DNA of 63,530 nucleotides, the filler included. It is 6 parts of 6 records of this genome, joined end to end, with 100 filler letters (N's around TTAATTAATTAA, not from the genome) between each part and the next. Parts side by side here need not be neighbours in the genome. Positions count along the whole stretch, not along the records: positions 1 to 8,598 come from DRR723986_8394; 5 more parts are not named here. One strand, written 5' to 3'. Below the pieces are notes generated by a model. The model was not told the DNA's origin. It saw nothing but the letters and a program-made list of their open reading frames with translations, and did no database searches. Positions within the stretch are counted from its first letter, which is position 1. Each line of letters starts with the position of its first letter. Positions 1 to 29,595 of this stretch are shown piece after piece. The position numbers and the translations under genes were made by a program.

Positions 1-606
1 GCGCAGGCCTTTCAGGCATTGGTCGGGCAGCGGGCGGATGCCGCCCTCGCCCTGCACGGGTTCGATCATGATGGCGGCCACATCGGGGCGGGCGGCGGCC
101 TGGGCCAGCGCATCGTGATCGCCCCAGGTGAGATGCACAAAGCCGGGCAGCAGCGGGCCGAAACCTTTGGTCATTTTCTCGGAGCCCGCGGCGGCGATAC
201 CAGCGGAAGAGCGGCCATGAAAGGCGCCTTCGAATGTGATGATGTTCACCCGCTCGGGTTGGTTTTTTTCATACCAGTATTTGCGCGCCATTTTCACCGC
301 CAATTCGCAGCTTTCGGTGCCGGAATTGGTGAAGAAAACCGTATCGGCAAAGCTGGCCGCGACCAGGCGATCGGCCAGGGCCTGTTGCTGGGGGATGCGG
401 TAGAGGTTTGACACGTGCCACAGGTTTTGCGCCTGTTCGCTCAAGGCCTGCACCAGGGCGGGGTGCGCATGGCCCAAGGCGTTGACGGCGATGCCTGCGC
501 CGAGGTCAAGAAAACGTCGGCCATCTGCCTCGATCAGCCAGCTGCCTTCGCCCTTGACGAATTCAAGAGGGGCACGGTTGTAAGTGGGCAGAATGCTGGG
601 GATCAT
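1..606 (-). CDS. argD: Acetylornithine aminotransferase (class III PLP), 3' end off the window
   Basis: Hand translation from ATG 606: MIPSILPTYNRAPLEFVKGEGSWLIEADGRRFLDLGAGIAVNALGHAHP; SD AAGGA at 615-619. Missing from the ORF track because the stop lies outside the window. Confidence 0.9.
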   Translation of the reverse strand, partial: MIPSILPTYNRAPLEFVKGEGSWLIEADGRRFLDLGAGIAVNALGHAHPALVQALSEQAQNLWHVSNLYRIPQQQALADRLVAASFADTVFFTNSGTESCELAVKMARKYWYEKNQPERVNIITFEGAFHGRSSAGIAAAGSEKMTKGFGPLLPGFVHLTWGDHDALAQAAARPDVAAIMIEPVQGEGGIRPLPDQCLKGLR

Positions 607-731
607 CGCGATCATCCTTTGATAAAGAGCCTATGTCGTGCCGAATTGGCACTGGCGCGTCAAGTTTTGTGAAAGTGTTTGCGCAAGAGCGGCGCAATGG
701 CAATGGTAAAGGGGCGAATGGCAAAGGGGCG

Positions 732-776
732 TCAGGCGCGGGTGCGTCGACGTCGGGTGCTGGGGATATGTGCCAT
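732..776 (-). CDS. Putative Arg-rich leader peptide MAHIPSTRRRRTRA upstream of argD
   Basis: ATG GCA CAT ATC CCC AGC ACC CGA CGT CGA CGC ACC CGC GCC TGA; 5 Arg in the last 7 residues, two of them CGA; ends 125 nt before the argD ATG on the same strand. Confidence 0.6.
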   Translation of the reverse strand: MAHIPSTRRRRTRA

Positions 777-909
777 AGATACCATGGTGGCGCTTTTACG
801 GCGAGACTGGTGGCGGGGAAAGTGAAAAACGAGGTTTTGCCGCCGGCCTGGCAGCGAAGGTGGCGGGGCGCGTTATTTGTGCAACAGGGCCGGTGGCTGT
901 GCCTGGGCC

Positions 910-1362
910 CTAGCGTGACCAGCGGTTGAGGGCGGTTTCGTCTTCTTCGCGGGCCGCGACCCAGGTGGCGCTTTTGGCGCTATGTTCTTTTTTCCAGAAA
1001 GGCGCGCGGGATTTCAGGTAATCCATCAGGAATTCGGCCGCTTCAAAGGCGTCTTTGCGGTGGCGGGCGGCTGTGGCCACCATCATGATGGCCTCGTCTG
1101 GGTGCATGCGCCCGTAGCGATGCAGCACAAAGGCATCGGCCAAGGGCCAGCGCTGGTGGGCCTGATCGATAATTGCCTCGAGCGCGCGTTCGGTCATGCC
1201 GGGGTAATGTTCGATTTCCATCACATCGAGGCCTTGGGCGATATCGCGCACGATGCCGGTAAAGGTAACAATTGCCCCCGCTTGTGCGCCCTGTTGGCGT
1301 GCCACAAAGGCATTGGCCTCGGCCCCCAGATCGAATGGGGCGTCTTGCACGCGCACCCGCAT
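910..1362 (-). CDS. moaE: Molybdopterin synthase catalytic subunit
   Basis: GAIVTFTGIVR, EHYPGM and LKSRAPFWKKE motifs. Confidence 0.95.
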   Translation of the reverse strand: MRVRVQDAPFDLGAEANAFVARQQGAQAGAIVTFTGIVRDIAQGLDVMEIEHYPGMTERALEAIIDQAHQRWPLADAFVLHRYGRMHPDEAIMMVATAARHRKDAFEAAEFLMDYLKSRAPFWKKEHSAKSATWVAAREEDETALNRWSR

Positions 1363-1363
1363 C

Positions 1364-1612
1364 TCAGCCCCCTGTCATGGGCGGAAAAAACGCCACTTCG
1401 CGGGCACCGGCCAGGGGTGCTGTGAAATCTGTCAATTCTTGGTCTACGGCCACGCGCAGGGCCGCGAGATCTTGGAAGGCGGATGCGTAGCGGGGTTCGC
1501 GCGCGCGCAATTCATCAACCAGCGCCTGAACGGTTTCAGCCTGGGTTTCAACGGTTTCGCGGGGGGTGCCGATACGTTCGCGCACCCAGGCGAAATAAAG
1601 CACGTCGATCAT
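1364..1612 (-). CDS. moaD: Molybdopterin synthase sulfur carrier subunit
   Basis: MIDVLYFAWVRE...VAFFPPMTGG with C-terminal GG; ATGA overlap with the pgsA stop. Confidence 0.95.
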   Translation of the reverse strand: MIDVLYFAWVRERIGTPRETVETQAETVQALVDELRAREPRYASAFQDLAALRVAVDQELTDFTAPLAGAREVAFFPPMTGG

Positions 1613-2274
1613 GGGGTATCCTTTAGATGCGGCAGCGCCTTTTGCAGATAATCGGCGCCGGTCAGCAATGTCAGGGCTGACGCCACCCACAGCAGCGTCA
1701 CGCCCGCGTGCCCGGCCCAGATTGTGCCATGCCACAGCCACTGCTGGCCGGGGAATTCCTGTGCGCCCTCTTGTTTCAGCTCGATCAGCAAGGCCGGGTC
1801 CATCCCGGGGCTGGGCAGGCCCAGGTAATGTTCAAACACGCCTTGCGCAAACAGCATGGCGATGGCCACCATCTGTGCGGTGGTTTTCCATTTGGCCAGG
1901 GGCGTTACCTTTAGCGTGCCGGCTGTATCGCCCAAAAATTCGCGCAAGCCCGAGACAAAGACCTCGCGGAACAAGATAACGGTGGCGGGCAGAACCAACC
2001 AGGGCGACATCGAGGAATAGCCCACAATCACCATCAGCGCGATAACCACCATCGCCTTGTCGGCAATGGGGTCTAGCATGGCGCCAAGCTTGGTTTCTTG
2101 TTTCCACGCCCGGGCCAGATAGCCATCGAACCAATCGGTGACGGCGGCGCTGACAAACAGCACCAATGCGAACCAATCGGCATAGGGGCGGTTAAAAAAC
2201 AAAAACATTACCGCGACGCCGGGTGCAGCGACCAGGCGCAGGGTGGTTAAGATATTTGGCACAGTCCAGTTCAT
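1609..2274 (-). CDS. pgsA: CDP-diacylglycerol--glycerol-3-phosphate phosphatidyltransferase
   Basis: PNILT and DWFDGYLAR...GAMLDPIADK CDP-alcohol motif. Confidence 0.95.
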   Translation of the reverse strand: MNWTVPNILTTLRLVAAPGVAVMFLFFNRPYADWFALVLFVSAAVTDWFDGYLARAWKQETKLGAMLDPIADKAMVVIALMVIVGYSSMSPWLVLPATVILFREVFVSGLREFLGDTAGTLKVTPLAKWKTTAQMVAIAMLFAQGVFEHYLGLPSPGMDPALLIELKQEGAQEFPGQQWLWHGTIWAGHAGVTLLWVASALTLLTGADYLQKALPHLKDTP

Positions 2275-2314
2275 AGCACTTTCCTACCCCGTCCCTTGGG
2301 CGGTGGGAAGGGGC

Positions 2315-3301
2315 TCAATGCCTGGGGCGCATAAGTTGGGCCGAGGCCAGGCGCCGCGCGCGCAGGCGTTCGCGCAAAAACACAAACAACCCCGAGCCCA
2401 TGATCAACAAAATGCCCGCGCTTACCGCCGCATCTGGCCATTCAGACCACAGCAGCCAGCCCCAAAACACCGCCAGGGGCAGGCCCACATATTCAAAAGG
2501 CGCGATTGTGGCGGCATCGGCCAGGCGATAGGCCTGGGCCAGGCTGTAGCCGATGATCGCCGAATTCAGCCCCAGGCCCAGAAACAGCCAGATATCATTG
2601 CCCTGCGGCCAGATCCATGCGCGCAGCAAAAACACCACCGATCCGTTCTCGATACCTTCGGCGTAACGCCCATCGCCGGCAATGACGAAAAAGCCAAGCG
2701 AGACGATGATGAAAAGCCCCTGAATATAAACCGCCATCGCCGAGGCGCGGGTGCTTATGCCCAGTTTGCGGGTCATGATTTGATTAAGCGCATAAAACAG
2801 CGCCGATACCACCGGCAACAGCAGCACCCAGCGCGATAGATCCAACGCGCTGCCGGGCGCCCATGGTTTCATCATCACCACCACGCCGGCAAAGCCCGCC
2901 ACCACAGCGCCCAGCCGCCATGGGCCCACTTTTTCACCCAATAGGGGAATCGACAGCAGGGTGATCATCAGCGGTGCCACGAAAAACAGCGCGGTGGCAT
3001 TGGCCAATGGCATCACCGCCAGCGCGGCGAAATAGGTAAGATTTGAGATCACCACCAAAACCCCCCGCAGCAGGTGCAGCCCGGGCGTGCGGGTTTTCAA
3101 GATGTGCCAGCCGCCCTCCCACTGCACCAAGATCAGGGAAAACACTATGCCAATGGCCGAGCGTAAAAACACCATCTGGTGCAGCGGGTAGCCACCAGAA
3201 AGCTGTTTGATCAGCATGTCATTGATCGAGATTGCCACCACCCCCAACAGCACAAAGCCGATTCCCGCGGCGTTTGCATTATGTGGCATTGGGCTGGCCA
3301 T
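2315..3301 (-). CDS. DMT/EamA family transporter
   Basis: Multiple TM segments, LLGEKVG and APFEY motifs; start chosen from GGAGG SD at 3307-3311. Confidence 0.85.
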   Translation of the reverse strand: MASPMPHNANAAGIGFVLLGVVAISINDMLIKQLSGGYPLHQMVFLRSAIGIVFSLILVQWEGGWHILKTRTPGLHLLRGVLVVISNLTYFAALAVMPLANATALFFVAPLMITLLSIPLLGEKVGPWRLGAVVAGFAGVVVMMKPWAPGSALDLSRWVLLLPVVSALFYALNQIMTRKLGISTRASAMAVYIQGLFIIVSLGFFVIAGDGRYAEGIENGSVVFLLRAWIWPQGNDIWLFLGLGLNSAIIGYSLAQAYRLADAATIAPFEYVGLPLAVFWGWLLWSEWPDAAVSAGILLIMGSGLFVFLRERLRARRLASAQLMRPRH

Positions 3302-3424
3302 GGGGCCTCCTTTCGGGGTGGAAAGCATTGGTTGGGCGGCGCTGTCGGTTTCCCTATGGAAAACCACACGGGCCTTGGTTTACTGTGACCAAACTTGCCG
3401 CCAACACAAGACGAGGATTTTTTC

Positions 3425-3967
3425 ATGGAAATGAAAGACCAGCGTGACATCGCTGCCGACCGTGCCACGCTGTGGGCCGCTATTTTGAACCCCGAGGTGC
3501 TGAAAGCCTGCATTCCCGGCGCACAAGAGGTGACAGGCACGCCCCAGACAGGGTTCGAGGCCACTGTTGTGCAAAAGGTTGGGCCGGTGAAGGCCACGTT
3601 CAAGGGCGCTGTCAGCGTGTCTGACATGGTCGAGGGCCAAAGCCTGACGTTGACGGGCGAGGGCAAGGGCGGGGCTGCGGGCTTTGCCAAGGGTGGCGCG
3701 CGCGTTCATATGGAAGATATCGAAGGCGGCACGCGCCTAAGCTACGAGGTGGATGCCAAAGTGGGGGGCAAACTGGCGCAGCTGGGCAGCCGCCTGATTG
3801 ATGGCTTTGCCAAGAAAATGGCCGATGATTTCTTTTCCCGCCTGCAAGATGCGGTCGAGGCCCCGGCCGATGATGCCGGCGATGGCGACAGCGACAGCGA
3901 GGCTGCGGCCGGTGGTGAAGCAGCCGCCAAAAAAGGCTGGTTCAAACGCCTGACTGGCAAAGACTAA
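3425..3967 (+). CDS. coxG: CoxG/SRPBCC family protein
   Basis: LNPEVLKACIPG, VGPVKATF and VGGKLAQLGSRLID motifs; acidic linker and amphipathic C-tail KKGWFKRL. Confidence 0.85.
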   Translation: MEMKDQRDIAADRATLWAAILNPEVLKACIPGAQEVTGTPQTGFEATVVQKVGPVKATFKGAVSVSDMVEGQSLTLTGEGKGGAAGFAKGGARVHMEDIEGGTRLSYEVDAKVGGKLAQLGSRLIDGFAKKMADDFFSRLQDAVEAPADDAGDGDSDSEAAAGGEAAAKKGWFKRLTGKD

Positions 3968-3977
3968 CCGCGCAGCG

Positions 3978-5285
3978 CTACCGTGCGGCGGCCCCAGTGG
4001 GCTGCTGCGTGGGCTGCTGCGGGGGCAGGCGCCTTTCGGCGCTGCGGGCATGGCCCTCCATGCCCTCCGCGCGGCTGATATTGGCGCTGGCCGCGGCCAA
4101 GGCGGGCAGCGCCTGCGCATCGGCCTGCTGCCATGTGACGGTTTTGAGGTATTTCAGCACCGATAGCCCCCCGGTATGGCGCGCCGCGCCGCTGGTGGGC
4201 AGCACATGGTTTGGCCCTGCGGCCTTGTCGCCAAAGGGCACGGTGGTGTTTTCACCCAAAAATAGCGATCCGTAGTTGCGCAGGCGGTTTTTCCACCACG
4301 CCAGATCGCGGGCCTGCACATGCAGATGCTCGGGCGCGTAGGCGTCTGATTTTTGCGCCATCTCCTCGACCGTGTCGCAGACCCAAACCTCGCCCAGGGC
4401 CTGCCATGCGGCGGCGGCGGCCTGTGCGTTGGGGGCGGGTAATTCTGCGATGCAGCGCGGAATATGGGCCATCACGGCCTGCGCCAGAGGCGCGCTGTTG
4501 GTCACTAGCCACACAGGCGAATTAGCGCCATGTTCGGCCTGGCCCACCAGATCCCATGCCACGGTCAGCGGATCGGCGCTGTCATCAGCCAGCACCAGGC
4601 TGTCGGTGGGGCCTGCCACCATATCGATGCCCACAGGCCCAAACAGCTGGCGCTTGGCCTCGGCCACATAGGCATTGCCGGGGCCCACCAAAATATCGGC
4701 GGGCAAGGCCCCAAACAAGCCATAGGCCATGGCGGCAATGCCCTGCACGCCCCCGATGGCCAGCACCCGCGTGGCCCCGGCCAATTGCATGGCGTAAAGG
4801 ATGGGGGCGGGAATGCCCTGCCCGGGGTGGGGCACCGAACAGGCGGTGATATGGGGCACGCCGGCCACCTTTGCGGGGGTGATCGTCATCAAGGCGCTGG
4901 CGATATGGGCATAGCGCCCGCCTGGCACATAGGCGCCCACGCTGCCCACTGGAATAACCCGCTGGCCCGCGCGCAGGCCGGGGCGCAGTTCGATCTCCAT
5001 CTCGCCAAGGGTGGCGCGCTGGGCCTCGGCAAAGCGGCGGATGTTGTCATGGGCATAGGCGATATCGTCTTTCAGCCCCTGTGGCACTTGATCAGTTGCG
5101 GCGGCGATGGTTTCGGGGGCCACCTCGATCGGGCCATCCCAGCCATCCAGCTTTTGCGCATAGCCGCGCGCCACGTCAGCCCCGCCTTGGCGGATCTCGG
5201 CCAGCATGCGCTGCACAGTTTCAGCCACGTCGTGGCTTTCTTGGGGGGGCAGGCCGGGGCTGGCTTTGAGGGCACGGATGGGCAT
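3978..5285 (-). CDS. HpsN-like (sulfopropanediol 3-dehydrogenase) member of the histidinol dehydrogenase family
   Basis: YVPGGRYAHIASALMT, VGIDMVAGPTDS, QAEHG, APEHL and GMEGHAR resemble the HpsN subfamily more than canonical HisD; GGAGG SD at 5291-5295. Confidence 0.75.
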   Translation of the reverse strand: MPIRALKASPGLPPQESHDVAETVQRMLAEIRQGGADVARGYAQKLDGWDGPIEVAPETIAAATDQVPQGLKDDIAYAHDNIRRFAEAQRATLGEMEIELRPGLRAGQRVIPVGSVGAYVPGGRYAHIASALMTITPAKVAGVPHITACSVPHPGQGIPAPILYAMQLAGATRVLAIGGVQGIAAMAYGLFGALPADILVGPGNAYVAEAKRQLFGPVGIDMVAGPTDSLVLADDSADPLTVAWDLVGQAEHGANSPVWLVTNSAPLAQAVMAHIPRCIAELPAPNAQAAAAAWQALGEVWVCDTVEEMAQKSDAYAPEHLHVQARDLAWWKNRLRNYGSLFLGENTTVPFGDKAAGPNHVLPTSGAARHTGGLSVLKYLKTVTWQQADAQALPALAAASANISRAEGMEGHARSAERRLPPQQPTQQPTGAAAR

Positions 5286-5557
5286 TGGGGCCTCCTTTTC
5301 TGGCCCCAGAAAACGCGCCAAGCCCCACGCCGCGCAAGCGCAATCACCCGCAGGCACGGGCATTTTTCAGTGCCTAAAAGGAGGTTTCGGGAAAGCTGTA
5401 AAAGGGGGCTTTGCGGGGCCTGGCTGCGTGGCGCCTGCGTTTGCGAAAACAGGTGACATTCTAACGTGATTTTCCTGATTTTAAAAAACGCTTGACCTTG
5501 CTTTGGGCGTGAACAATCCTCGATCGAAATATTGTTTTAATTGCAACTTAAGGTGTT

Positions 5558-6244
5558 TTGATTGTGGGCATTCTTCGCCGGTTTTTTCGTGGTCTAATTT
5601 TGGGTGCTATTTGCATTGCAGGCGTCTTTTCTGCAGGGCGTGCCGATGCGTTCAACGTGGGTTCTGTGGCCTATCTTTGCAGCAAAAACACCAAAATGCT
5701 TTGGGTGATCGGGCCAGATAGCTACACGGGCTGTCCGGTTCGCATTTTGCGAAATGCCGGTGGCAGTTATCGTATTCTAGCACATAGTCGTGGCTGTATT
5801 CTGCCGGGGTTTGGTTCGGGGTATCTGAGCCGTGGACAAGAAGCCTGGGTGGAAAGCTACGATTTATGGGGCACCCGTGCCGCATGCGAAAGCCGGGGCA
5901 AGAAAGCCCAAGCCAGCAAGCCAAAAAACTATCCGCTTAAAATGCAGAACTTTTGCAAATACGACATGCTCGGCTTTGTGCGCTATAAGAATTTGTCTGG
6001 TAACTGGGTGAATAGCGATTGGTTCAACCTGCCCGCCGATAGCAAACGCTACAATGTGCGCGGCGTTCAGACGAAGAATTCTACCTTCTACTATTACTTG
6101 GTTTATGCAGAAGGGCCTTATAAGGGTAAAACCTTTGGCCGTGGCGCACCCGATGTCAGGCGCGAGAAAGACGGGAAATCCTACGGTATGCGCGAGTTTA
6201 GATCTGGCTCTAGGCCACCTGGAATTGCCTTTTGCAAAAAATAA
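5558..6244 (+). CDS. Secreted Cys-containing hypothetical protein with DUF1036-like C-terminal domain
   Basis: Signal-like N-terminus ending ADA; NFCKY..FVRYK..GNWVNSDWFNL...NSTFYYY; visibly more AT-rich than its flanks. Confidence 0.55.
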   Translation: MIVGILRRFFRGLILGAICIAGVFSAGRADAFNVGSVAYLCSKNTKMLWVIGPDSYTGCPVRILRNAGGSYRILAHSRGCILPGFGSGYLSRGQEAWVESYDLWGTRAACESRGKKAQASKPKNYPLKMQNFCKYDMLGFVRYKNLSGNWVNSDWFNLPADSKRYNVRGVQTKNSTFYYYLVYAEGPYKGKTFGRGAPDVRREKDGKSYGMREFRSGSRPPGIAFCKK

Positions 6245-6351
6245 TCTGATGCCAGGGGCCAAATAGGCCTGAGCACAGACAGATTGGCGCGGTTATGCGT
6301 AGGGCATCTGCGGCCAGTTTTGGCCGATCCGGGTTTGCGCCGATGGGGTGC

Positions 6352-6786
6352 TTACCCAAGCCGCGCCAGCAGGCCTTTTGCGCAGGTCTCGATCAGGTCT
6401 AGGCAGCCGTTGAAATCGCGGGTGTAATAGGGGTCGGGCACCTGGGTGGCGCCGGTTTCGGGGGCGTAATCGGTAAAAAGATGCACCGGTGTGGTGTTGC
6501 CTTTGGGGCGCTGCGCCTCGATATCGGTGCGGTTTTGCGCGTCCATCGCCAAGATCAGATCGAAGCGGGTGAAATCATCGGGGCTGAACTGGCGCGCGCG
6601 CAGGTCTTGCATGGCAATGCCACGGGCGCGGGCTGCGGCCTGCATTGGGGCGTAGGGCGGCTCGCCCTGGTGCCAGCCCGAGGTGCCGGCGCTGTCGATC
6701 TGCCATTGGGGCGCGATCTGGCGCAGCACCGCCTCGGCGCTGGGGGATCGGCAGATATTGCCGAGGCAAACGCATAAGATACGCAT
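6352..6786 (-). CDS. Low molecular weight protein-tyrosine phosphatase
   Basis: VCLGNICRS P-loop, DSAGT and DPYY motifs. Confidence 0.92.
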   Translation of the reverse strand: MRILCVCLGNICRSPSAEAVLRQIAPQWQIDSAGTSGWHQGEPPYAPMQAAARARGIAMQDLRARQFSPDDFTRFDLILAMDAQNRTDIEAQRPKGNTTPVHLFTDYAPETGATQVPDPYYTRDFNGCLDLIETCAKGLLARLG

Positions 6787-6853
6787 GGGTGTTTCCCCTT
6801 GGCTGTGCGCCTGCGCCAGGCTGCGGGGCCCGGCGCAGGCAGGGCGGTGGCCC

Positions 6854-7354
6854 TTAATCTGATTGTTTCTGCATCGTGCCGTGACCCATGCTGCCGTGGC
6901 CCATGCTGCCGTGATCAGGCTTGCGCTGCAAATCAACCGGCACGGTGACGGCAACATCGCCTGCTTTTTCAAATTCCAGCGTCAGCTGCACTGTGTCGCC
7001 ATCTTGCAAGGGGCGGGTCAGGCCCAAAAACATCACATGGTGGCCGCCGCGGGCCATCATGATATGCCCACCTGCGGGCAGTGCAAAACCTTCCTCGACA
7101 TGGAGCATGCGCATCACGCCCATATCGTCTTCTTTATGGGTGTGCAGTTCGGTCTTTTCTGCCACATCCGAGCGCGCGCCGATCAGGCGGTCGTCGGGGC
7201 CGGTGTTTTCGATCACCATAAAGGCCGCGCCCGAGCTAGACATCATGGCCGACACGCGGGCGTAAGGATCTTTGACGGTGATATCGGCGGCAAAGGCGGG
7301 CAGGGCAAGGCTGGCAGCTGCGAGGGCTGCGATAAATGTGGTTTTCAGCGACAT
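6854..7354 (-). CDS. Periplasmic copper chaperone, PCu(A)C family
   Basis: Signal peptide; ELHTH..GVMRM...GGHHVMF; His/Met tail HGSMGHGSMGHG. Confidence 0.92.
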   Translation of the reverse strand: MSLKTTFIAALAAASLALPAFAADITVKDPYARVSAMMSSSGAAFMVIENTGPDDRLIGARSDVAEKTELHTHKEDDMGVMRMLHVEEGFALPAGGHIMMARGGHHVMFLGLTRPLQDGDTVQLTLEFEKAGDVAVTVPVDLQRKPDHGSMGHGSMGHGTMQKQSD

Positions 7355-7396
7355 TGGCTGATCCTTTCGATCTGTCTGTTGGTTTGGGTGTTTGGA

Positions 7397-7750
7397 TCAG
7401 ACAGTGGGAAAGGGGGGCGCGCGGGCCTGGGCATGGGGCGCAATTTGCCCCGTGCTGCTGCGGCTTTGACTGACAAAGGCCACAGCCTGCCAGCGGCTGG
7501 GGCGCGGTAGCAGGGTTTGCACCGGGCCCAGAGCGGCAAATAACGACAGGCTGCAATCGGGGCAGATATGGCGGGGGCCGATGGGTTGGCCCTGTTCATC
7601 GACCAAAACGGTGATGGGGCCCGTGCCCGTGCACAACACCATACTGCCTGCAGGCCCTGTGGCGCCACGGGCCACGGCCATGGTTTGGCCTGTCAGGGCC
7701 AAAATCACGGCCATCAAAGCGGCCAGAATCGGGCTGCGTAAAAAGAGCAT
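7397..7750 (-). CDS. DUF2946 family protein (CruR/CutF-like)
   Basis: Signal-like N-terminus, VLCTG, ICPDC (CxxC) and C-terminal ARAPP, directly upstream of PCuAC. Confidence 0.75.
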   Translation of the reverse strand: MLFLRSPILAALMAVILALTGQTMAVARGATGPAGSMVLCTGTGPITVLVDEQGQPIGPRHICPDCSLSLFAALGPVQTLLPRPSRWQAVAFVSQSRSSTGQIAPHAQARAPPFPTV

Positions 7751-7795
7751 GGGGGCTTAATAGCCGCTTAGTCTGCGGGTGTCAGGCGCCAAACG

Positions 7796-7832
7796 AAAAC
7801 AGCCCTGCGGCGCGGCACCGCAGGGCTGTTTT
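7796..7832. terminator. Rho-independent terminator downstream of rpmB, bidirectional form
   Basis: AAAACAGCCCTGCGG-CGCGGCA-CCGCAGGGCTGTTTT. Confidence 0.85.
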
Positions 7833-7849
7833 GGTAAAGCACAAAAAGA

Positions 7850-8140
7850 TTAGGCGTTTGCGGCCTGAGCTTTTTGAATTTCTTTTTTCACCTTCAGCGC
7901 GTTGTCCGACAGCTCGGCGTCTTTGGCTTTGGCCAGGAACGCATCCAGCCCGCCACGGTGATCAACCGAACGCAGTGCTGCGGCAGAAATGCGCAGTTTC
8001 ACGCCACGGCCCAGGGTTTCGGACTGCAGGGTGACATCGTTCAGGTTCGGCAGAAAACGACGCCGAGTTTTGTTGTTGGCGTGGCTAACATTGTTACCAC
8101 TCATCGGGCCTTTACCGGTCAGTTCGCAGCGGCGCGCCAT
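7850..8140 (-). CDS. rpmB: 50S ribosomal protein L28
   Basis: [39 protein letters not shown]. Confidence 0.97.
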
Positions 8141-8231
8141 GGTTATTACCTCGTCTGGATCGCGGGGCGAATGCGGCCCCCTCAACATATAAGGGCACCG
8201 CCGACGGCCGTGCCCCGAATTCCGTTCGGGT

Positions 8232-8260
8232 GCATTAGGGGGAATCGCGCGGCGCGTCAA
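8232..8260 (-). promoter_or_regulatory. Putative sigma70 promoter of rpmB
   Basis: Minus strand TTGACG-N17-TAATGC. Confidence 0.55.
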
Positions 8261-8355
8261 GGGCGATATCGGTGCATGCGCCCGTAATTGATGGCCAGCC
8301 CCCCCCTGGCCGCCCGCCCGTCGCCCACCCGCCGCCCACCCGCCGCCCCAATGGC

Positions 8356-8598
8356 TTAGGCGGCTGGCGGTAGAAAGCCGCCCGACTGCCGCGCCCAAAG
8401 CCGGGCATAAAGCCCGCCTTGCGCCAGCAAGGCGCTGTGGCTGCCCTGTTCGATGATGCGGCCCTGATCCAAAACCACGATTTTGTCCATTTGCGCAATG
8501 GTCGACAGGCGGTGGGCAATGGCCAAAACGGTTTTGTCCTGCATCATTGTGTAAAGCGTGTCTTGAACGGCGGCCTCTACCTCGGAATCCAGCGCCGA
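8356..8598 (-). CDS. ABC exporter ATP-binding/permease, C-terminal fragment
   Basis: SALDSEVE...IAHRLSTI...EQGSH; cut by the contig spacer. Confidence 0.85.
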
Positions 8599-8698
8599 NN
8601 NNNNNNNNNNNNNNNNNNNNNNNNNNNNNNNNNNNNNNNNNNTTAATTAATTAANNNNNNNNNNNNNNNNNNNNNNNNNNNNNNNNNNNNNNNNNNNN
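8599..8698. other. Artificial contig spacer
   Basis: N-run, TTAATTAATTAA (stops in all six frames), N-run. Confidence 0.99.
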
Positions 8699-9890
8699 CC
8701 TGCCGCTGGCTACGCAGGTTCGGAATGACAACAACCGGCTGGACCCCCAGTTCGCGTTCAAACTGACGCGCGCTGCGCAGGCGGCCATCGAGAATTTCCA
8801 GCGCCAACGCCGCCGCAACCGCAAGGAACACCACCAGCATACCACCCGCCAGGGCCAGTTTCTTGCGGCTTGTCGACACCGGGTATTCGGGCGGAATGGC
8901 GGTTTCCAGAACCTCGAACCGTTCCGCCTGATTGCGGGTTTCCAGAAGCTGGTTCATCGCGGCCTGCGCCCGACGTTCGGTGATGACGCCCAGTTCGTCC
9001 TGCAACTGATCCAGCTGGCGTTCAAAGACATGGGTCTGGCGTTCAACCTCGGGCGCGGTGGCCAGAACCGCCTCGATCTCGGCGATGGCGTCGGTGACCA
9101 GATCCAGGCGCTGATTGAGCAATTCCTGCTGACGCAGGCGCGCCTCGGCCAGCAGCCGACCGCTTTCGCTTTCCAGCTCGATGATCTGTTCTTCAATGTC
9201 GATCCGGCTTTCCTCCAGCCGCGACAGCTGTGTGCGCTGCGAGGCAATCGCCGCAGGAAGCGCGCCGGAATTTGCCTGGCGGAATTCCGAATAAGCGAAT
9301 TCCATCTCTTCGATCTCGCCGGTCAGGCGGGCCTCCTCGACCTCCAGAAACTCCAGTGTCCGCGCCGTCCGACCCGAGGTGCGTTCCTGCGCTTCCTCCA
9401 GAACCCGGTCGAGGAAGGTGTTGGCAATCGCTGCGGCAATGTCGGGATCGGAAAGACGCACGGTGATCACCAGACCGGATGGCTGGACGTCCGGGCGCCA
9501 GGCCTGTTCAGGGTCGATCAGTTCGACGATCTGCACCGCACGGCGCAACAGGGCCACGCGTTCCGTGACCGAAGGAATACCTTCGAACAGCCCGAACTGG
9601 TCCAGAATGGACATGACATGGTCGCGCGACATGAGTTGCTGTTCGATCAGCTCCAGTTCGCTATTCGGGTTGAGCGTTCCACTTGCGGCCCCGCCCCCGG
9701 TCTGACTGGTCAGCCGTTCCACCACCTGCGCCGCCTCGATCTGCACCACGGCAGTCGCTTCGTAAACCCGAGGCTGGCTGAGCGCATAGAGCAGGACGCC
9801 GGGAATCCCCACGACCAAGATGAGCGTTATCACCCACATCCGGCGCAGCAGGATGCGTGGGATATCCCAAATTGACGATATTGGACCCAT
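8699..9890 (-). CDS. Wzz/GumC polysaccharide chain-length determinant, C-terminus truncated
   Basis: N-terminal TM with YEATA, long coiled coil, AIPPEYP and a second TM. Confidence 0.85.
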
Positions 9891-10041
9891 GGGGGCAGTC
9901 CTTCCGGTTGATAATTCCTGGTGCCTGTCGGCAGATTATTGGCGAAGCCCGATAGGCAGGGTTTCAATCAAGGCAGCAACCGCCCCCGCGTTGCCATTTC
10001 CTTGCCTCAATTTAGATGAGTTTTGGTCAAATTTCCAAGGT

Positions 10042-10773
10042 TTAGGCGGTTTCCGGCTGGAAACACTCCATTTCCATTTCGGCATTTCGGGCCACATTTC
10101 CGCCACATTCCCCGGACAGCGGCAGCGCCACAAGGGTGCAGATCAGACCATCGCGGCAAAACAGCTGCCCTTGCAGGCGGCCCCCTGCCTTGTAGGGGCC
10201 AAACGGGATGCACAAATGCACGGTGAAACGGTTCCGGGCCAGATCCGGAACGATCTCCATCGCGTCGAACCCCACAACCCGGCGGATCTGCGGGTAAAGC
10301 GCCTTGTAGGTCGCTTCCTTGGCGGAAAAGATCATCTGTGCATAGCCACCGCGCAAGGGCGCAGCTTGTGTAGAGAGCCAGGCCCGATCCGCTTCGGTCA
10401 GCACGGTTGGCCACAGGTCTTCGGCCAAAGGGTCCATCGCGGCAAGGTCGAGGCCGAGACCGGCCAGCGACGTGCGTCGGGCCGCGACCGCGATACAGCG
10501 GCCTTCGTGATGGGTGATTGAACCCACAAGTCCCGAGGGCCAGACCGGCGCCCGATCCACCCCCATCGGGATTGCAAAGGGCACCATGCCAATGGCACGC
10601 AAGGCCCGGCGCGCAGCAGCGCGCCCTGCCGCGAACTCTGCCTGCCGCGCCGGGGTGGCGCGGGCCAAAGCACGGGATTCTCCGGGCCAGAAATCATGGC
10701 CCTCACCCACACGTGCCTCTCCAAAGCCAAGTGCGCCGCCCCGCCAACCGGTAACGATCAGATCACGAAACAT
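10042..10773 (-). CDS. 4'-phosphopantetheinyl transferase, EntD/Sfp type
   Basis: RQAEFAAGR, PVWPSGLVGSITH and FSAKEATYKA motifs. Confidence 0.9.
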   Translation of the reverse strand: MFRDLIVTGWRGGALGFGEARVGEGHDFWPGESRALARATPARQAEFAAGRAAARRALRAIGMVPFAIPMGVDRAPVWPSGLVGSITHHEGRCIAVAARRTSLAGLGLDLAAMDPLAEDLWPTVLTEADRAWLSTQAAPLRGGYAQMIFSAKEATYKALYPQIRRVVGFDAMEIVPDLARNRFTVHLCIPFGPYKAGGRLQGQLFCRDGLICTLVALPLSGECGGNVARNAEMEMECFQPETA

Positions 10774-10775
10774 GC

Positions 10776-13700
10776 CTATCCCCTTCCCATACGGGCCGCG
10801 CGCATCTGGCGGCGACGTGACATGGCCTCGGCCCGATTGATCGCCCGATCTGGCGCGCTGGCTGGCTTTGGCGTTTCAGGTTCCGGCAAATTGCCCCGGG
10901 TCAGCCGGTCAACCTCTGCCGCCAGCGCGGACAGCACCGGGAAGCGGAAGATATCGGTGATCGAGAGCCGATCTGCCCCCAGATCCGCGCGGATATCGCG
11001 ATGCGCCTGCACCGCCAGCAGCGAGTGGCCGCCTAGATCAAAGAAATGATCCTGCGGGCCGATGCCTTCGACGCCCAGAATACGGGTCCAGATCGCGGCA
11101 ATGCGCCCGGCGGTGCTGGCCGCCTGCGTGATCGGGGTGACATTGGTGGGCGTCGCTGCACGGGCGCGCGGCGCGGGCAGCGCCTTGCGGTCGATCTTCT
11201 TGTTCGGCGTCAGCGGGAAGGCGTCGAGCCGCACGAAATGCGCAGGCACCATATGCGCAGGCAGCTCCGCCGCCAGATGATCGCGGATCCTGGCGGGATC
11301 AACCGGCGCCGTTTCCAGATAATAGCCCACAAGCTGCACATTGCCCGGCGTATCTTCGCGCGGGATGACCACCGACTGGCGCACGCCCGGCACGGCGTCG
11401 ATCCGGGTTTCGATCTCTCCCATCTCGATCCGGTAGCCGCGCAGCTTGATCTGGTGGTCCGCCCTGCCAAGGAAATCGAGCCCGCCATCGGCGCGCCAGC
11501 GCACCAGATCGCCGGTTCGATAGATGCGGTTGCCGGATTTGAACGGATCGTCAAGGAACCGCTCTGCCGTCAGGTCGGGCCGCTGCCAATAGCCGCGCGC
11601 CACGCCTTCACCGCCGATGAAAAGCTCTCCCGGAACGCCAATCGGCACCGGCTGCATCGCTTCGTCCAGCACGTAGACTTGTGTATTGGCAATCGGCGTA
11701 CCGACCCCGGTGATCCCCTCGCCGCCCGTGGCTGTCTGGGTCGTGGACCAGATCGTGGTTTCGGTCGGGCCATACATGTTTTCGATATGGGCGTCTGTTG
11801 CGGCCTGAAGCTCCGCCACCAAAGACCCCGGCAGAGCCTCGCCGCCCACCATCAGGTGGTTTACGCGGGCCAAGGCCATGCGCGCCTCATCGTTCCCCAC
11901 CAGCATCCGCGCCATCGAGGGCGTGCATTGCAGATGCGTGACGCCATGGCGAATAATCTGCGCCGCGATGGAAAAGTCATCCTCGGCCAGCGCATCGCCC
12001 TGATTGGCGCGTTTCAGCACCTCGGCCACCGGCTTCAGCCCCTCCAGAACCTTCTGCCGCTCAATACCATAGTCGATCAGGCAGGCGATCTCATCCACAC
12101 CGATCCGCTTCAACTGCTCCACCCGGTCCAGCGCATCCTCGACCGTGCCAAAAAGACCGCTGTCATTGAAATAGCGCTCGAATGCGAAGTCGAGGATCGC
12201 TTCCAGCTCCTCCTCTGACAGCACTCCAAGGTCGAGCTGCATCGGGTTCGACACGCCCTTGGGCTTCTTGAAGGCCGGGAAGGCCCAGGCAAACTGTTTG
12301 ATCAGCCCGGCGGCCGAGCGCAGATAATCCTTCATCGGACCGCGCGCGACCTCTCTCGCCTCCTCGCGGTCCTGCGCAAGATAGGAATGCAGCATAAGCG
12401 TGACGGTGTGATCCGCCGGATCGCGGCCTGCGTCGCGCAGGGCCTGATGGTAGATCTTGATCTTGTCGCCGACCTCATCAACCGACTGGCCCAAAAGGTG
12501 CGTCAGCACATTGGCCCCGATCTCTCCGGCTTCGCGCCAGGTGTCGGGGTTGCCTGCGGTGGTGACCCAGATCGCCAGTTCCTTGGACACCGGGCGCGGC
12601 TGCGTCAGCACCTTGTGTTCGGACCCGTCCGCCATGGGGAAGGCCACTTCCTCGCCCCGCCACAATGCGCGCAGCTTGTCGATTGCGTCATACATGGCAG
12701 GCTTGTTGTTGGGTGGCGTGTTTTCAGGGCGCAACACGAAATCATGCGGCTGCCAGCCGCTGGCGATGCCAAGTGCCGCACGTCCATTTGTGAGGTTGTC
12801 GATCACCGCCCATTCCTCGGCGATCCGGGCGGGATGGTGCAATGGTGCTACGACAGACCCCGACCGCACGCCGATATTCTTGGTCACGGCGGCCACGGCC
12901 GCCCCTGTCACCGAGGGGTTCGGGTAAGGCCCACCAAAGGCGTGAAAATGGCGTTCGGGCGTCCAGACCGCACAAAACCCGTTCTGGTCGGCGAATTTCG
13001 CGCCGTCCAGCAGCATTGCGTATTTATCCCGGCCCACACCGTCGTCATTGCCCCAATAAAACAGGGAAAATTCCATGCCCCGGCCGGTCTGACCGATGCG
13101 GCCATTGCTGACCAGTGTGCGGTTTTCATCGCCGGAAATCACGACCGTGAACCCACGCGCGAGGGTCCAGAACAGCTCCAACACCGAGATGTCGAAGCTG
13201 AGGCTGGTCACCGCCAGCCAGACGCCGCCCGTTTCATGGTCAATGCGCCCATCCATGCCGGTAAAGAAATTCGAGACGTTGCGATGCTCGATCATCACGC
13301 CCTTGGGCCGTCCGGTGGACCCGGAAGTATAGATCAGATAGGCCAGATCCTCCGGCGTGACACCGCTGTCGGGGTTGGAATCGGGGGCCGTCGCGATCCG
13401 CGGATCGCGGTCGATCTCCAGCACCTGGGCCTGATGCGGCGGCAGATGCGGGGTCAGCGCGGCCTCGGTCAGGATCACCTTCGCGCCGCTGTCTTCAACA
13501 TAAAGCGCCACCCGGTCCGCCGGATAGTCGGGGTCGAGCGGCACATAGGCACCGCCCGCCTTGTGAATGGCGATGGCCCCGATCAGCAGATCGGCAGAGC
13601 GGCGGATATTGAGCCCCACAAGGTCGCCCCGACGCACCCCAAGCCCGGCCAGCACATGTGCGACGCGGTTTGCGCGGGCATTCAGCGCCGCATAGCTCAG

Positions 13701-15341
13701 ACGTTCGCCCTCAAAAATCAGCGCGGTCGCATCCGGCGTCTTTGCGGCTTGCGTTTCAAACATCTGGTGGATGCAATGGGCGCGGTCAAAGCCCGTATCC
13801 GTGGCGTTCCAGTCGTGGATCAGCTTTTTCCGTTCGCAATCTGGCACGATGGACAGCTCTGCAACCGGCGTTGCCGGATCTGCGGTCAGGACGTGTTCCA
13901 GCCGGGCGGCGATCAGGTCCAGTTCCTGCTCGGTCACCTGTGCGGCATCCGCCACGAGGGTCTGCCCGTCTTCCGACAGGGTCAGGGCCGCGCCCGGAAC
14001 CGGGTCAGTCCCGATGGCAAAGGAGGGCACCGTCAGACCGGACATCCACGGAATACGGGCAGGCAGGTCGCACGCAAACGGGCCTTTCGCACGCGCCGCA
14101 TCAAGGCGCGCCGCGAACCGCTGTTCTGCCTGTTCGAGACTTCCGTCAGGGTCAATGGTCACCGGCACCCAAGGGGCGATGTATCCCGGTGCCGCAGCTG
14201 GCATCTGCAACGCCAGATCGACGGCTTCTCCTTCGCCCTTGCGAAGGGCGAGCATTGCGAACCGCGCCAAAGCCTGCCGCGCGCTTATGCCATCGGGAAG
14301 CGAAACCCGCCGGGTCGCTGTGCCTTCCCCCGATCCGGGGTGGAAGGCAAAGCTGGCAGGAACCATCGTTTCAAGCCGCTTGCGCCAGAAAGGATCGCTC
14401 GGGGCAACGGCGGCCATTGCGTCCGTGATCTCAGATCGGTTCTGGTCCGTGGGCAGCTGACGGCCAGCGGCAAGATGATCTGCAAGGACCAAAGGCGCGC
14501 CATCGGCGGCACGAAACCGACTGAACCGCACCGCGCCATCGGCCACCGCGATGGTGGCAGTTCCGCCGGTGACCTCCAGCACAGTTCCGGGCGCGCCGGT
14601 GCCATCGGCCGGTTCCGCATCGCCGACAAGCAGAATTTCGGTGCCGGTATCCAGCTTGGGACAGGTCAGAGGGTTCCAGTAATCGCCATGATCCAATGCA
14701 TGAACTATGCCCGTTATCTCATTGAGATTACGTTTTACATCAATCAATCCGCCAGCATCAGGCCGCTGGTCCCGCGCATAGTAGCTGCGGCGCGACAGGT
14801 CTTGCGGTGTTCCCGCTGCGCGCCCTTCCGCCAGCGCTGCAATGACCTCAGCAAAGCTGTCCAGCGCCGCCGCATAGCACTTGGTGTTCAGCGTCAGGGC
14901 GGTTTCGCCCGGTGCGATCTCCACGCGCCGCTGCGACAGGATATTGCCCTCGTCCACGCCGCCTGCAATCCGGTGCCAGGTGATGCCATGGGAGGTTTCG
15001 CCATTCAGCAACGCCCAGACCGGGGCATTCAGACCGGCATAGGCGGGCAAGGGGCCGTCATGGAAATTGACCGCGCCCTGACTTGCCTGCGCCAAGACCC
15101 CGTCGGGGATGATATCGAGGTTGGCAATCGACAGTATCCATTCAAAATCAATGCCCTGAAGGCGGTCTACCAAACTCGCACCCGGTTCGATCAGGGGCAA
15201 TCCTTCGGCCTCGGCCCAAGCACGAAATTCGGGGCAGCGGCTGACAATGGCGCGGATCGGATGACCCGCCCCGGCTAGCATCTTGGCGCAGTTCAGCGCC
15301 AGCGTGTCGTGACCGATAATGAGAGAGGAAAACTGGGCCAT
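10776..15341 (-). CDS. NRPS-like protein: formyltransferase, degenerate linker, adenylation domain interrupted by a MupA/Atu3671-type luciferase-like monooxygenase, PCP
   Basis: NFHDGPLPAYAG (formyltransferase); YTSGSTGRPKG and FDISV; VWTPERHFH (LLM); GGEAL, YGPTETT and YRTGD; FFDLGGHSL (carrier). Confidence 0.92.
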   Translation of the reverse strand: MAQFSSLIIGHDTLALNCAKMLAGAGHPIRAIVSRCPEFRAWAEAEGLPLIEPGASLVDRLQGIDFEWILSIANLDIIPDGVLAQASQGAVNFHDGPLPAYAGLNAPVWALLNGETSHGITWHRIAGGVDEGNILSQRRVEIAPGETALTLNTKCYAAALDSFAEVIAALAEGRAAGTPQDLSRRSYYARDQRPDAGGLIDVKRNLNEITGIVHALDHGDYWNPLTCPKLDTGTEILLVGDAEPADGTGAPGTVLEVTGGTATIAVADGAVRFSRFRAADGAPLVLADHLAAGRQLPTDQNRSEITDAMAAVAPSDPFWRKRLETMVPASFAFHPGSGEGTATRRVSLPDGISARQALARFAMLALRKGEGEAVDLALQMPAAAPGYIAPWVPVTIDPDGSLEQAEQRFAARLDAARAKGPFACDLPARIPWMSGLTVPSFAIGTDPVPGAALTLSEDGQTLVADAAQVTEQELDLIAARLEHVLTADPATPVAELSIVPDCERKKLIHDWNATDTGFDRAHCIHQMFETQAAKTPDATALIFEGERLSYAALNARANRVAHVLAGLGVRRGDLVGLNIRRSADLLIGAIAIHKAGGAYVPLDPDYPADRVALYVEDSGAKVILTEAALTPHLPPHQAQVLEIDRDPRIATAPDSNPDSGVTPEDLAYLIYTSGSTGRPKGVMIEHRNVSNFFTGMDGRIDHETGGVWLAVTSLSFDISVLELFWTLARGFTVVISGDENRTLVSNGRIGQTGRGMEFSLFYWGNDDGVGRDKYAMLLDGAKFADQNGFCAVWTPERHFHAFGGPYPNPSVTGAAVAAVTKNIGVRSGSVVAPLHHPARIAEEWAVIDNLTNGRAALGIASGWQPHDFVLRPENTPPNNKPAMYDAIDKLRALWRGEEVAFPMADGSEHKVLTQPRPVSKELAIWVTTAGNPDTWREAGEIGANVLTHLLGQSVDEVGDKIKIYHQALRDAGRDPADHTVTLMLHSYLAQDREEAREVARGPMKDYLRSAAGLIKQFAWAFPAFKKPKGVSNPMQLDLGVLSEEELEAILDFAFERYFNDSGLFGTVEDALDRVEQLKRIGVDEIACLIDYGIERQKVLEGLKPVAEVLKRANQGDALAEDDFSIAAQIIRHGVTHLQCTPSMARMLVGNDEARMALARVNHLMVGGEALPGSLVAELQAATDAHIENMYGPTETTIWSTTQTATGGEGITGVGTPIANTQVYVLDEAMQPVPIGVPGELFIGGEGVARGYWQRPDLTAERFLDDPFKSGNRIYRTGDLVRWRADGGLDFLGRADHQIKLRGYRIEMGEIETRIDAVPGVRQSVVIPREDTPGNVQLVGYYLETAPVDPARIRDHLAAELPAHMVPAHFVRLDAFPLTPNKKIDRKALPAPRARAATPTNVTPITQAASTAGRIAAIWTRILGVEGIGPQDHFFDLGGHSLLAVQAHRDIRADLGADRLSITDIFRFPVLSALAAEVDRLTRGNLPEPETPKPASAPDRAINRAEAMSRRRQMRAARMGRG

Positions 15342-15345
15342 AGGA

Positions 15346-26490: not shown

Positions 26491-26670
26491 GAAACAAACC
26501 TGTCGAAGTAGAGGCCGACGAGAGCCGGCGAAAAGAAAGCCGGCATTGTACAGGTTTGCACCAGAGACTGTGAGGCCGCAGAAACACGGACAAAAACCAC
26601 TTGCCTCAGGGCGCCGCTGCGGGCAGCATTCCGGTCTGTGTTCCATTCACCCAACGACAGGAAATTGATC

Positions 26671-26949: not shown

Positions 26950-26962
26950 TCCGATGATCGGC

Positions 26963-26998
26963 CCGGCCGGTGTTCGGAATATCTCCGACGCCGGCCGG
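26963..26998. terminator. GC-rich hairpin between convergent genes
   Basis: CCGGCCGG...CCGGCCGG stem, no U-tract. Confidence 0.45.
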
Positions 26999-27006
26999 AG
27001 TGCGTC

Positions 27007-27834: not shown

Positions 27835-27858
27835 TTACCTATCATCCTGACTAATGCA

Positions 27859-28653: not shown

Positions 28654-28654
28654 G

Positions 28655-29554: not shown

Positions 29555-29595
29555 AATCACTGCATATTTGCAACAAGGGTACGGATTTTAACGTA

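Follow-up and report, generated by a model that had tools for sequence, protein, structure and literature searches.

Introduction

Arginine biosynthesis in bacteria is the textbook example of control by the ArgR repressor, and leader-peptide attenuation is taught for the trp, his, leu, thr, ilv and phe operons; to our knowledge it is not taught for arg. Here we analyse a short open reading frame (ORF) with a run of arginine codons near its end, which precedes argD, the gene for acetylornithine transaminase, in a 63,530-nt stretch of DNA (the window) and in other members of the order Rhodobacterales. A preliminary description of the window had proposed that ribosomes stalling on these codons control argD, either through Rho-dependent termination or through sequestration of the argD Shine-Dalgarno (SD) sequence. 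Window coordinates are used throughout, and the features of the locus lie on the minus strand, which is the strand of both argD and the leader.

The classical attenuators share several parts with this locus. In enterobacterial trpL, hisL, leuL, thrL, pheL and ilvL, as at argD, the operon is preceded by a short ORF whose final part carries a run of cognate codons, these codons form a hairpin with the segment behind the stop codon, and the start of the leader is sequestered by RNA made later. The argD leader differs from them in its amino acid (arginine), in its predicted leaderless start without an SD, in having no U-tract terminator with a competing antiterminator, and in carrying a promoter-like box inside. 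At tnaC-tnaA of E. coli, a ribosome at the end of a short ORF beside a C-rich Rho site decides on read-through; there the signal is free tryptophan, the peptide is conserved and the stall occurs at the stop codon, whereas at argD only the codon run is conserved and the signal is presumed to be starvation.

Two published systems come closest: the mycobacterial polycysteine short ORFs by build, and orf34 of the Salmonella speF leader by signal. The mycobacterial short ORFs are leaderless, and the ribosome that stalls on them frees a downstream ribosome-binding site (Canestrari et al., 10.1101/834739). They resemble the argD leader in that leaderless start, which is predicted for argD, in a run of one codon type, in the pathway genes downstream and in the proposed use of the ribosome as sensor, and differ from it in phylum, in amino acid and in their output, since release of a ribosome-binding site is not supported at argD. 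In orf34, pausing at consecutive arginine codons reports low arginine (PMC6386406). It has two features in common with what we propose for our locus, pausing on arginine codons and Rho-dependent termination within the leader; orf34 differs in serving polyamine synthesis, in having two such codons in an ORF of 34, in possessing its own SD, and in an output, an RNase G-sensitive RNA structure, which is not what we propose for argD.

Within the Alphaproteobacteria, the trpL unit of Sinorhizobium is likewise a leader-peptide unit, and its terminated RNA, rnTrpL, can act separately (10.1101/606483, PMC7968998). It senses tryptophan through a classical terminator and antiterminator, unlike the argD leader, and its action in trans has been demonstrated, which for argD would be speculation. 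The same order as ours is represented by uORFC-8-2, a conserved upstream ORF before cysS in Rhodobacterales, attributed to ribosome-mediated attenuation by comparative genomics (PMC8632094); both the gene and the codons are others. The matching passages of that survey of structured RNAs mention no argD motif, and those of PMC4344238 and PMC3616915 have no bearing on this leader. We found no published description of an arginine-codon leader before arginine biosynthesis genes in searches of the literature.

Results

In most Rhodobacterales, argD is preceded by a short ORF with an arginine-codon run

The 5′ part of argD occupies positions 1-606 and is truncated by the window edge (NF002325, 307.8 bits over 202 aa). 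Its start is the ATG at 606, with an additional in-frame ATG at 615 and an SD, AAAGGA, at 615-620. Upstream, the leader ORF spans 732-785, comprises 17 codons plus stop and encodes MVSMAHIPSTRRRRTRA; it is identified by its sequence, its conservation, a frame test and the geometry of the promoter predicted before it. The shorter ORF of 14 codons (776-732) that had been described, with CGA-CGT-CGA-CGC-ACC-CGC before the stop, matches the DNA letter for letter: from ATG at 776 through GCA CAT ATC CCC AGC ACC it reaches the run CGA CGT CGA CGC (744-755), then ACC, a further CGC at 740-738, GCC and the stop TGA at 734-732, and it reads MAHIPSTRRRRTRA. An in-frame ATG at 785 lengthens this ORF to 17 codons, and 785 is the likelier start because a predicted -10 element (799-794) stands 8 nt before it; the codons and the arginine run of the preliminary description thus stand, and its start most probably has to be moved. 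The distance from the leader stop to the argD ATG is 125 nt. When positions 1-3000 were searched with the Rfam covariance models, no match fell in 600-800 at E ≤ 10.

We compared argD upstream regions in two samples. The close set consisted of 80 Rhodobacterales argD loci, each with 1.5 kb of upstream DNA, together with the window (81 sequences); a script flagged 74 of the 81, two of which were false (L075 and L078, the latter being the end of the upstream gene). A counterpart of the leader, an ATG-initiated ORF of 10-21 codons with RR to RRRRR near its end, was therefore present in 72 of 81 loci. The nine without one were L004, L048, L062, L064, L068, L075, L076, L078 and L066, in the last of which the contig breaks off 69 nt upstream of argD. 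To avoid the bias of best hits, a second sample of 151 genomes was drawn evenly from the order; all had ArgD, and the upstream DNA of 150 was read. Requiring at least three arginines in the last nine residues and a stop codon 60-175 nt before argD, we found the leader in 115 of these 150 genomes, with five more carrying two arginines, four candidates rejected by position and 26 loci having none. The comparison that had been suggested across Rhodobacterales thus does reveal a shared short ORF with an arginine run, and the observation of an arginine-rich short ORF before argD is confirmed; it is the comparison of sequences among relatives that makes it significant. Across these loci the stop codon lies 69-169 nt before argD.

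A frame test that presupposes no ORF gave the same picture. Upstream of argD, the 150 loci contain 66 copies of the motif CGACGNCGACG, and the frame in which it encodes arginine is closed by an ATG and a stop codon in 65 of them, against seven cases for the other two frames. Genome-wide the 12-mer is not enriched, being as frequent as the reversed control; of 39 hits in five Rhodobacterales genomes, 30 were inspected, and among these only the argD copies sit in a short ATG-initiated ORF before a gene.

A second type of leader, MSKRRARIIRR or MTKRRTIRSRR, was seen at L242, L256, L257 and L265, and also at L264, L266 and L268. In leaders of the MSKRRARIIRR type the pair CGA-CGC occurs twice, with one copy falling within the 5′ strand of the closing stem described below, and their spacers are short (69-99 nt), very C-rich, and possess neither the TTGAC box nor the third hairpin of the other leaders. 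They may represent a minimal form of the switch.

Arginine codons are conserved and the surrounding peptide is not

The arginine codons of the leaders are used differently from those of argD itself. Among 560 arginine codons in 120 leaders, CGC accounts for 256, CGA for 235, CGT for 43, CGG for 21 and AGR for five; the corresponding counts among the 623 in the first 200 codons of argD are 305, 76, 100, 130 and 12. CGA, CGC and CGT together thus make up 534 of the 560, and CGA alone 42% in leaders versus 12% in argD. The run almost always begins with CGA, and two-codon runs are often CGA-CGA (eight cases). The bacterial codons CGU, CGC and CGA are decoded by one inosine-bearing tRNA-Arg, and CGA is read poorly. 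Since the three share that tRNA, the codon choice fits a sensor tuned to it.

Outside the run the peptides vary widely (for example MMTRATSTIRRRR, MIKRAHIQLLRRRRLSA and MSTLTPILPNRRRH), and in both the close set and the order sample the arginine run is the only part of the peptide that is shared; an N-terminal MIK and a C-terminal A fall on nucleotides that are paired in the RNA. Such diversity is expected of a codon sensor and not of a functional peptide. The run lies 0-5 codons from the stop codon, and 51 of the 120 leaders terminate in R. Its nucleotide sequence is close to fixed as CGA-CGY-CGA-CGC, with the direct repeat CGACGCCGACGC exact in 57 of 120 leaders, so that the synonymous variation which had been expected within the run proved to be small.

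The leader is predicted to begin on its own start codon

A promoter, which we call P1, is predicted directly upstream of the ORF, with a -35-like hexamer CTTTCC at 817-822 and a -10-like hexamer GTAAAA at 794-799, separated by a 17-nt spacer. When 115 leaders are aligned on their ATG, T occupies -35 in 87% and -34 in 63%, an A/T-rich patch lies at -45 to -41, and 107 have a TA in the -10 region, its T falling 12-13 nt ahead of the start-codon A in 91 of them. The base directly before the ATG is C in 75% of the 115. This conserved pair of elements places the predicted transcription start on the A of the leader AUG, and the leader mRNA is therefore, in our estimation, likely to be leaderless. 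Such a start would account for the lack of an SD, which had been remarked upon for the window and extends to the relatives: only 12 of 115 leader ATGs have an SD-like 4-mer before them, as against 110 of 115 argD ATGs.

In each of four RNA runs, taken from four studies, contigs extend unbroken over argD as far as 772, 765, 743 and 971, respectively. The first three of these endpoints fall within the leader ORF, a weak hint only, as such contigs reveal neither strand nor true ends. Two contigs, X1 (203-971) and X2 (746-946), extend over DNA upstream of P1, which may reflect read-through from moaE or DNA in the libraries; stretches without contig cover, such as 744-891 in run X4, carry no weight.

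The leader RNA is predicted to close on itself through co-varying helices

The leader RNA is predicted to fold into a closing stem and three hairpins. In the closing stem, whose 3′ strands lie at 697-723, TACCAT (708-703) complements ATGGTA (785-780), that is, the first start codon and the bases behind it; a second set, TGCCAT at 723-718 and 702-697, complements ATGGCA (776-771). The pairs co-vary between lineages (UGAUCAAA/UUUGAUC, UGACAAC/GUUGUCA, GAUCAC/GUGAUC, GUUCGC/GCGAAC). In 72 of 115 loci the first 12 nt of the ORF can form an uninterrupted helix of 6 bp or more with the segment behind the stop codon, compared with 34% for dinucleotide-shuffled and 27% for non-cognate segments, and 56 distinct helix sequences are involved; since kin are not independent, no probability is attached to this difference. 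The DNA at 723-697, behind the leader stop, contains three near-repeats, TTTGCCATT, TTTACCATT and TTGCCATT. One of these is complementary to the start at 785 and the other two to that at 776, so that pairing could shut both in-frame ATGs.

The first hairpin (HP1, 730-752) pairs the arginine codons (CGTCG, CGC) with the end of the ORF, the stop codon and the next bases (GCG, TGACG). It appears in the minimum free energy fold of the window leader and of relatives, and on reading the relatives with a TAA stop it takes the form of GCCGACGC with GCGT..CGGC. The second (HP2, 679-697) is TTGCGC-CGCTCTT-GCGCAA, with arms that vary among relatives by reading (GCGC/GCGC, GTGCC/GGCAC, GGCCGCG/CGCGGCC) and a folding z-score of -1.10 in the 72 leader loci of the close set versus -0.07 in eight without leader (order sample, -0.85 with and -0.13 without). 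We took its loop, CGCTCTT, to resemble boxA, and rejected that reading when the loop proved not to be conserved in relatives. The third (HP3, 629-656) consists of an outer GCC/GGC and an inner GTGCC/GGCAC stem, followed by the tail TCTTTATC (628-621). Its arms differ between relatives. Folding z-scores in the close set were -1.50 in the 72 leader loci and +0.16 in the eight without; in the order sample they were -1.10 (106 loci) and -0.51 (27 loci, among which five weak-leader loci are still included; Mann-Whitney U test, p=0.009). In the 106 loci HP3 has a mean predicted free energy (dG) of -10.9 and nine pairs, and stands about 22 nt before the argD ATG, with an 8-nt tail that holds 3.0 T on average and at least five T in 16 of 106. 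We encountered it only where the leader and the promoter-like box described below are both present.

Several sequence features that had been pointed out for the window were borne out. Both small hairpins, TTGCGC..GCGCAA (697-679) and GTGCC..GGCAC (652-638), are real and correspond to HP2 and to the inner stem of HP3; the tract from the leader stop to TTGAC is C-rich and G-poor (40% C, 13% G); and a scan of the minus strand of the window detected no terminator-like site between leader and argD, in agreement with the reported lack of a U-tract terminator. The composition holds more widely, and is of the kind that Rho-dependent leader-ORF attenuators such as tnaC, mgtL and orf34 require: across the 115 loci C makes up 37% of the spacer and G 21% (median C/G, 1.71), and the ratio runs at 1.4-2.6 from the start of the ORF to about 110 nt after its stop versus 1.0 upstream of P1. 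RNAalifold returned no consensus pairs from an alignment anchored on TTGAC, as the stems shift register, and from 13 full leaders it recovered no more than HP1, HP2 in part and a dubious GAUC/GAUC pairing.

A promoter-like box lies between the leader and argD

A second predicted promoter, P2, spans 635-663 and comprises TTGACG (663-658), a 17-nt spacer and CACGAC (640-635), with an A/C-rich stretch before it; HP3 lies over its spacer and -10 element. All 81 close loci have TTGAC at 40-100 nt upstream of argD, and 133 of the 150 order-sample loci have it at 45-80 nt; CA follows it by 17-18 nt in at least 90%. Loci without the leader have the box too, where it comes immediately after the upstream gene. 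A T at -7 is absent from most Rhodobacter promoters, and for this reason CACGAC, with A at -11, is not disqualified as a -10 element. On this comparison P2 is a rather likely candidate for the ordinary promoter of argD. The distance from TTGAC to CA is fixed while the register of HP3 shifts, which argues that a DNA signal and an RNA signal are superimposed here. We had also entertained a sigma-54 promoter (GGCAC-N5-GGGC), and dropped it because the GG is not conserved and TTGAC is.

In seven loci without the leader (L227, L236, L238, L247, L249, L252 and L255), argD follows a gene ending in ...TTCLIM and is preceded by two TTGAC boxes 23 nt apart (CTTGAC...GAATTGACTTGG). These may be tandem promoters.

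Discussion

The comparison made here yields a conserved ORF with a characteristic choice of codons, a promoter of fixed geometry before it, helices that join its ends, an excess of C over G and a promoter-like box downstream. That the element is a leader which acts in cis and senses arginine through its codons seems to us highly probable. We favour, on balance, the fuller reading in which it is a leader-peptide sensor of charged arginyl-tRNA for argD-argF, different in build from the enterobacterial attenuators. As an output step Rho is more tentative, and we would put its chances somewhat below even. Of the earlier interpretation, the arginine-codon sensor is thus retained, given the conserved ORF with its arginine run, and SD sequestration is abandoned in the light of the predicted folds and duplex comparisons discussed below.

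In this proposal, transcription from P1 would begin on the A of the leader AUG, and the 17-codon ORF would be translated from a leaderless mRNA until, close to its end, the ribosome reaches the CGA-rich arginine run. If arginine is ample, the ribosome would complete the ORF and depart, whereupon the 5′ AUG region would pair with the post-stop segment and the arginine codons with the stop region; the RNA so closed would additionally prevent new rounds of leader translation. Most P1 transcripts would then stop in the C-rich, G-poor leader near HP3, most plausibly by the action of Rho, which is the obvious candidate because the leader RNA is long and has more C than G, with HP3 serving as a pause site or a weak terminator. 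Under these conditions argD would be expressed solely from the internal P2, as a floor of expression. If arginine is scarce, we infer that ribosomes would be held on the run and block the closed fold, and more P1 transcripts would reach argD. The sign of this response follows from the logic of a biosynthetic operon only.

Several of our own results weigh against this reading. One concerns the promoters: a strongly conserved P2-like box stands between leader and argD, even in genomes that have no leader, and argD consequently need not depend on P1. The preliminary description had named an argD transcription start downstream of the ORF as evidence that would speak against its proposal, and the putative P2 box (663-635) touches on exactly this point. 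Others concern termination and the predicted folds. There is no switch in the folds, HP3 retaining 6.0 expected pairs in the free and 6.2 in the stalled state (106 loci); the minus-strand scan of the window gave no canonical terminator, and the HP3 tails average 3.0 T in 8 nt; and simulating a stalled ribosome raised the unpaired fraction of the 40 nt behind the stop codon from 0.42 to 0.50-0.53, in a calculation that counts covered bases as unpaired and leaves steric masking by the ribosome outside the model. Opening of C-rich RNA on stalling would favour Rho under starvation, opposite to what a biosynthetic gene needs. Either the ribosome would mask the Rho site sterically, as at tnaC, or the sign or target of control would not be the textbook one. 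Moreover, the arginine run is nearly invariant in nucleotides, such that the constraint could lie partly in RNA or DNA and not in codons, and a single output mechanism may not suit the minority of loci with a leader of the MSKRRARIIRR type, which have neither P2 nor HP3. Within the window, an ORF ending in RRRR is not beyond chance, as two places were found versus a mean of 1.0 in 20 shuffles (counting ATG-started ORFs of 8-26 codons with RRRR near the end); it is conservation in 72 of 81 loci and 115 of 150 genomes, and not the window by itself, that takes the ORF beyond chance. Finally, translation of the ORF, stalling on the run and regulation of argD are all putative, the first with indirect support from the bounded frame and from promoter geometry that suits a leaderless AUG.

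Two alternatives keep the stalled ribosome and change what it does. In attenuation of the trp or his type, HP3 would terminate P1 transcription intrinsically, and stalling of the ribosome would favour an antiterminator. HP3, with its nine or so pairs, a dG of about -10.9, a tail enriched in T and an advantage over shuffled sequences only at leader-bearing loci, invites this comparison, and so does HP1, which resembles the 1:2 hairpin of trp: its first strand holds the regulatory codons, and its second comes just behind the stop codon. However, no pairing competes with HP3, which loses more than two pairs on stalling in only 4 of 106 loci, and its tails are poor (the 16 of 106 noted above); between leader and argD the window offers no terminator-like site; and only 25 of 115 loci, compared with 8% of shuffles, have a hairpin directly behind the ORF that reaches dG ≤ -8 and is followed by a T-rich tail. 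We consider classical attenuation unlikely, and on the same count of 25 of 115 we rejected HP1 with a U-rich closing strand as a general terminator. In translational attenuation, the leader RNA would mask the ribosome-binding site of argD unless a ribosome is stalled on the run. A leaderless short ORF with a codon run is just the build of the mycobacterial cysteine sensors (10.1101/834739), and the window contains CCCCTTTG and CCCCTTTA, both able to pair with CAAAGG. In 72 predicted folds, however, the SD pairs mostly with the argD start or nearby bases and never chiefly with the arginine run. Duplexes with the SD were no stronger for cognate than for control sequences in 110 loci, whether the middle of the ORF (-6.05 cognate, -6.21 shuffled, -6.17 non-cognate) or the post-stop segment (-9.87, -10.05 and -10.24, respectively) was tried as the partner, and the AUAUC of the ORF shows no association with GGAUGAU at the SD. 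The CCTTTG/CAAAGG pairing suggested for the window is likewise not conserved, and release of the ribosome-binding site appears to us quite improbable.

Other explanations dispense with P1 as a source of argD mRNA, with codon sensing, or with sensing altogether. The P1 unit might itself be the regulator, either because its RNA ends at HP3 and acts in trans on arg mRNAs, for which rnTrpL of Sinorhizobium would be the precedent (10.1101/606483, PMC7968998), or because P1 interferes with P2 and a stall relieves this by exposing a bipartite Rho site made up of the post-stop strand, HP2 and the linker. Much would fit: HP3 accompanies only the combination of leader and P2 box; the free RNA is paired at its 5′ end, contains an internal hairpin and C-rich single strands, and carries a hairpin at its 3′ end; exposure of C-rich RNA on stalling gives the right sign; and ArgR was not found, while the leader motif is not repeated at other arg genes. 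Against it, RNA contigs in four of four runs pass from the leader through HP3 into argD, and the minority of loci without P2 must transcribe argD from P1. As a rule of thumb, Rho releases RNA 60-100 nt past the start of the C-rich part, and the likely release zone here coincides with P2 and does not lie ahead of it. We regard this idea as doubtful. A bolder version, in which the argD leader would be the master sensor of arginine in an order where ArgR was not found, in a reversal of the textbook scheme, strikes us as decidedly unlikely: with arginine plentiful, P1 transcription would stop at HP3 and yield a small RNA, stable, rich in C, some 160 nt long and paired at its 5′ end, which would repress scattered arg genes in trans, perhaps including argD mRNA made from P2, and in starvation the stalled ribosome would expose the bipartite Rho site, no small RNA would be made and the regulon would be released. 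It would account for all the conserved parts and give the right sign. The fungal arginine attenuator peptide (AAP), TnaC and SpeFL arrest ribosomes near the stop codon, and a nascent RRRR peptide could similarly sense free arginine or an intermediate in the exit tunnel, with high arginine stalling the ribosome near the stop. The position of the run, 0-5 codons from the stop with 51 of 120 leaders R-terminal, would suit this, as would the sign if the stall exposes Rho sites; but peptides are not conserved outside the run, AUAUCC is kept in another frame in L071 (by reading), which points to constraint on nucleotides and not on peptide, and a purely peptide-based model gives no reason for preferring CGA, CGC and CGT over CGG and AGR. 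We hold it to be very improbable. There might, lastly, be no sensor: a regulator of P2 could bind the conserved 12-mer in the DNA, or the ORF could be a by-product. Activator-dependent promoters often combine a perfect -35 with a poor -10, P2 has just this combination, and the direct repeat CGACGCCGACGC, exact in 57 of 120 leaders, is nearly invariant in nucleotides. Yet the distance from the run to TTGAC is highly variable (stop to argD 69-169 nt, TTGAC to argD about 54-70 nt) while that from the P1 -10 to the ATG is fixed, an ATG and a stop codon enclose the arginine frame for 65 of 66 motif copies, and helices join the ends of the ORF, all of which makes this explanation hardly credible.

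The proposed sensor matters on account of where it is found. ArgR (PF02863) scored above cut-off in none of 101 genomes of the order, in a search whose control was positive in 8 of 14 named genomes, and roughly three in four genomes of the even Rhodobacterales sample carry an arginine-codon leader; the leader probably lets the ribosome report arginine supply in genomes in which ArgR was not found. It thereby makes arginine sensing by these abundant marine bacteria a testable question. The build is also unusual, with its predicted leaderless start, a predicted stem between the 5′ AUG and the post-stop segment, no terminator and antiterminator, and an internal promoter-like box, and known rules predict no output for such an arrangement. 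An arginyl-tRNA-sensing leader peptide of non-classical build, with Rho as a possible output to be held tentatively, is the description that we would give of it.

Neighbouring genes and minor observations

Upstream of the leader, pgsA, moaD and moaE occupy 1362-910 on the minus strand, followed by a gap of 304 nt before argD. Between moaE and P1, a hairpin at 855-825 (minus strand; GCTGCC-AGGCC-GGCGGC, then AAAACCTCGTTTTT) may weakly end the pgsA-moaD-moaE transcript; it was absent from the output of the terminator scan. In the relative L040, where argD is full-length (624 bits), the next gene encodes ornithine carbamoyltransferase (argF, 378.7 bits). The sole other short ATG-initiated ORF of the window with RRRR near its end lies at 9787-9710 on the minus strand (MRSASLGFTKRLPWCRSRRRRWWNG) and is probably due to chance.

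Three more distant loci, L270, L277 and L279 (ArgD 56-59% identical), have no arginine ORF upstream of argD. They carry a TTGAC promoter-like box and then, in the 5′ untranslated region, a GC-rich hairpin with a T-run, exemplified by GCCCGCCGC...GGCGGGC followed by TCTTGGCTTTT; this may be a different leader element.

The genome G001 and its genus have no counterpart of window positions 500-960, only one of 61 genomes giving a match, of 30 nt, and the 12-mer occurs only at unrelated sites in G001 and four of its genus mates. Window positions 25933-39088 and, at least, 51626-60000 are 99-100% identical to pieces of contig 2 of G001, while 1-20000 has no counterpart there except two short weak matches. 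G001 therefore shares recently moved DNA with the window rather than kinship, and an integrative or other mobile element is likely.

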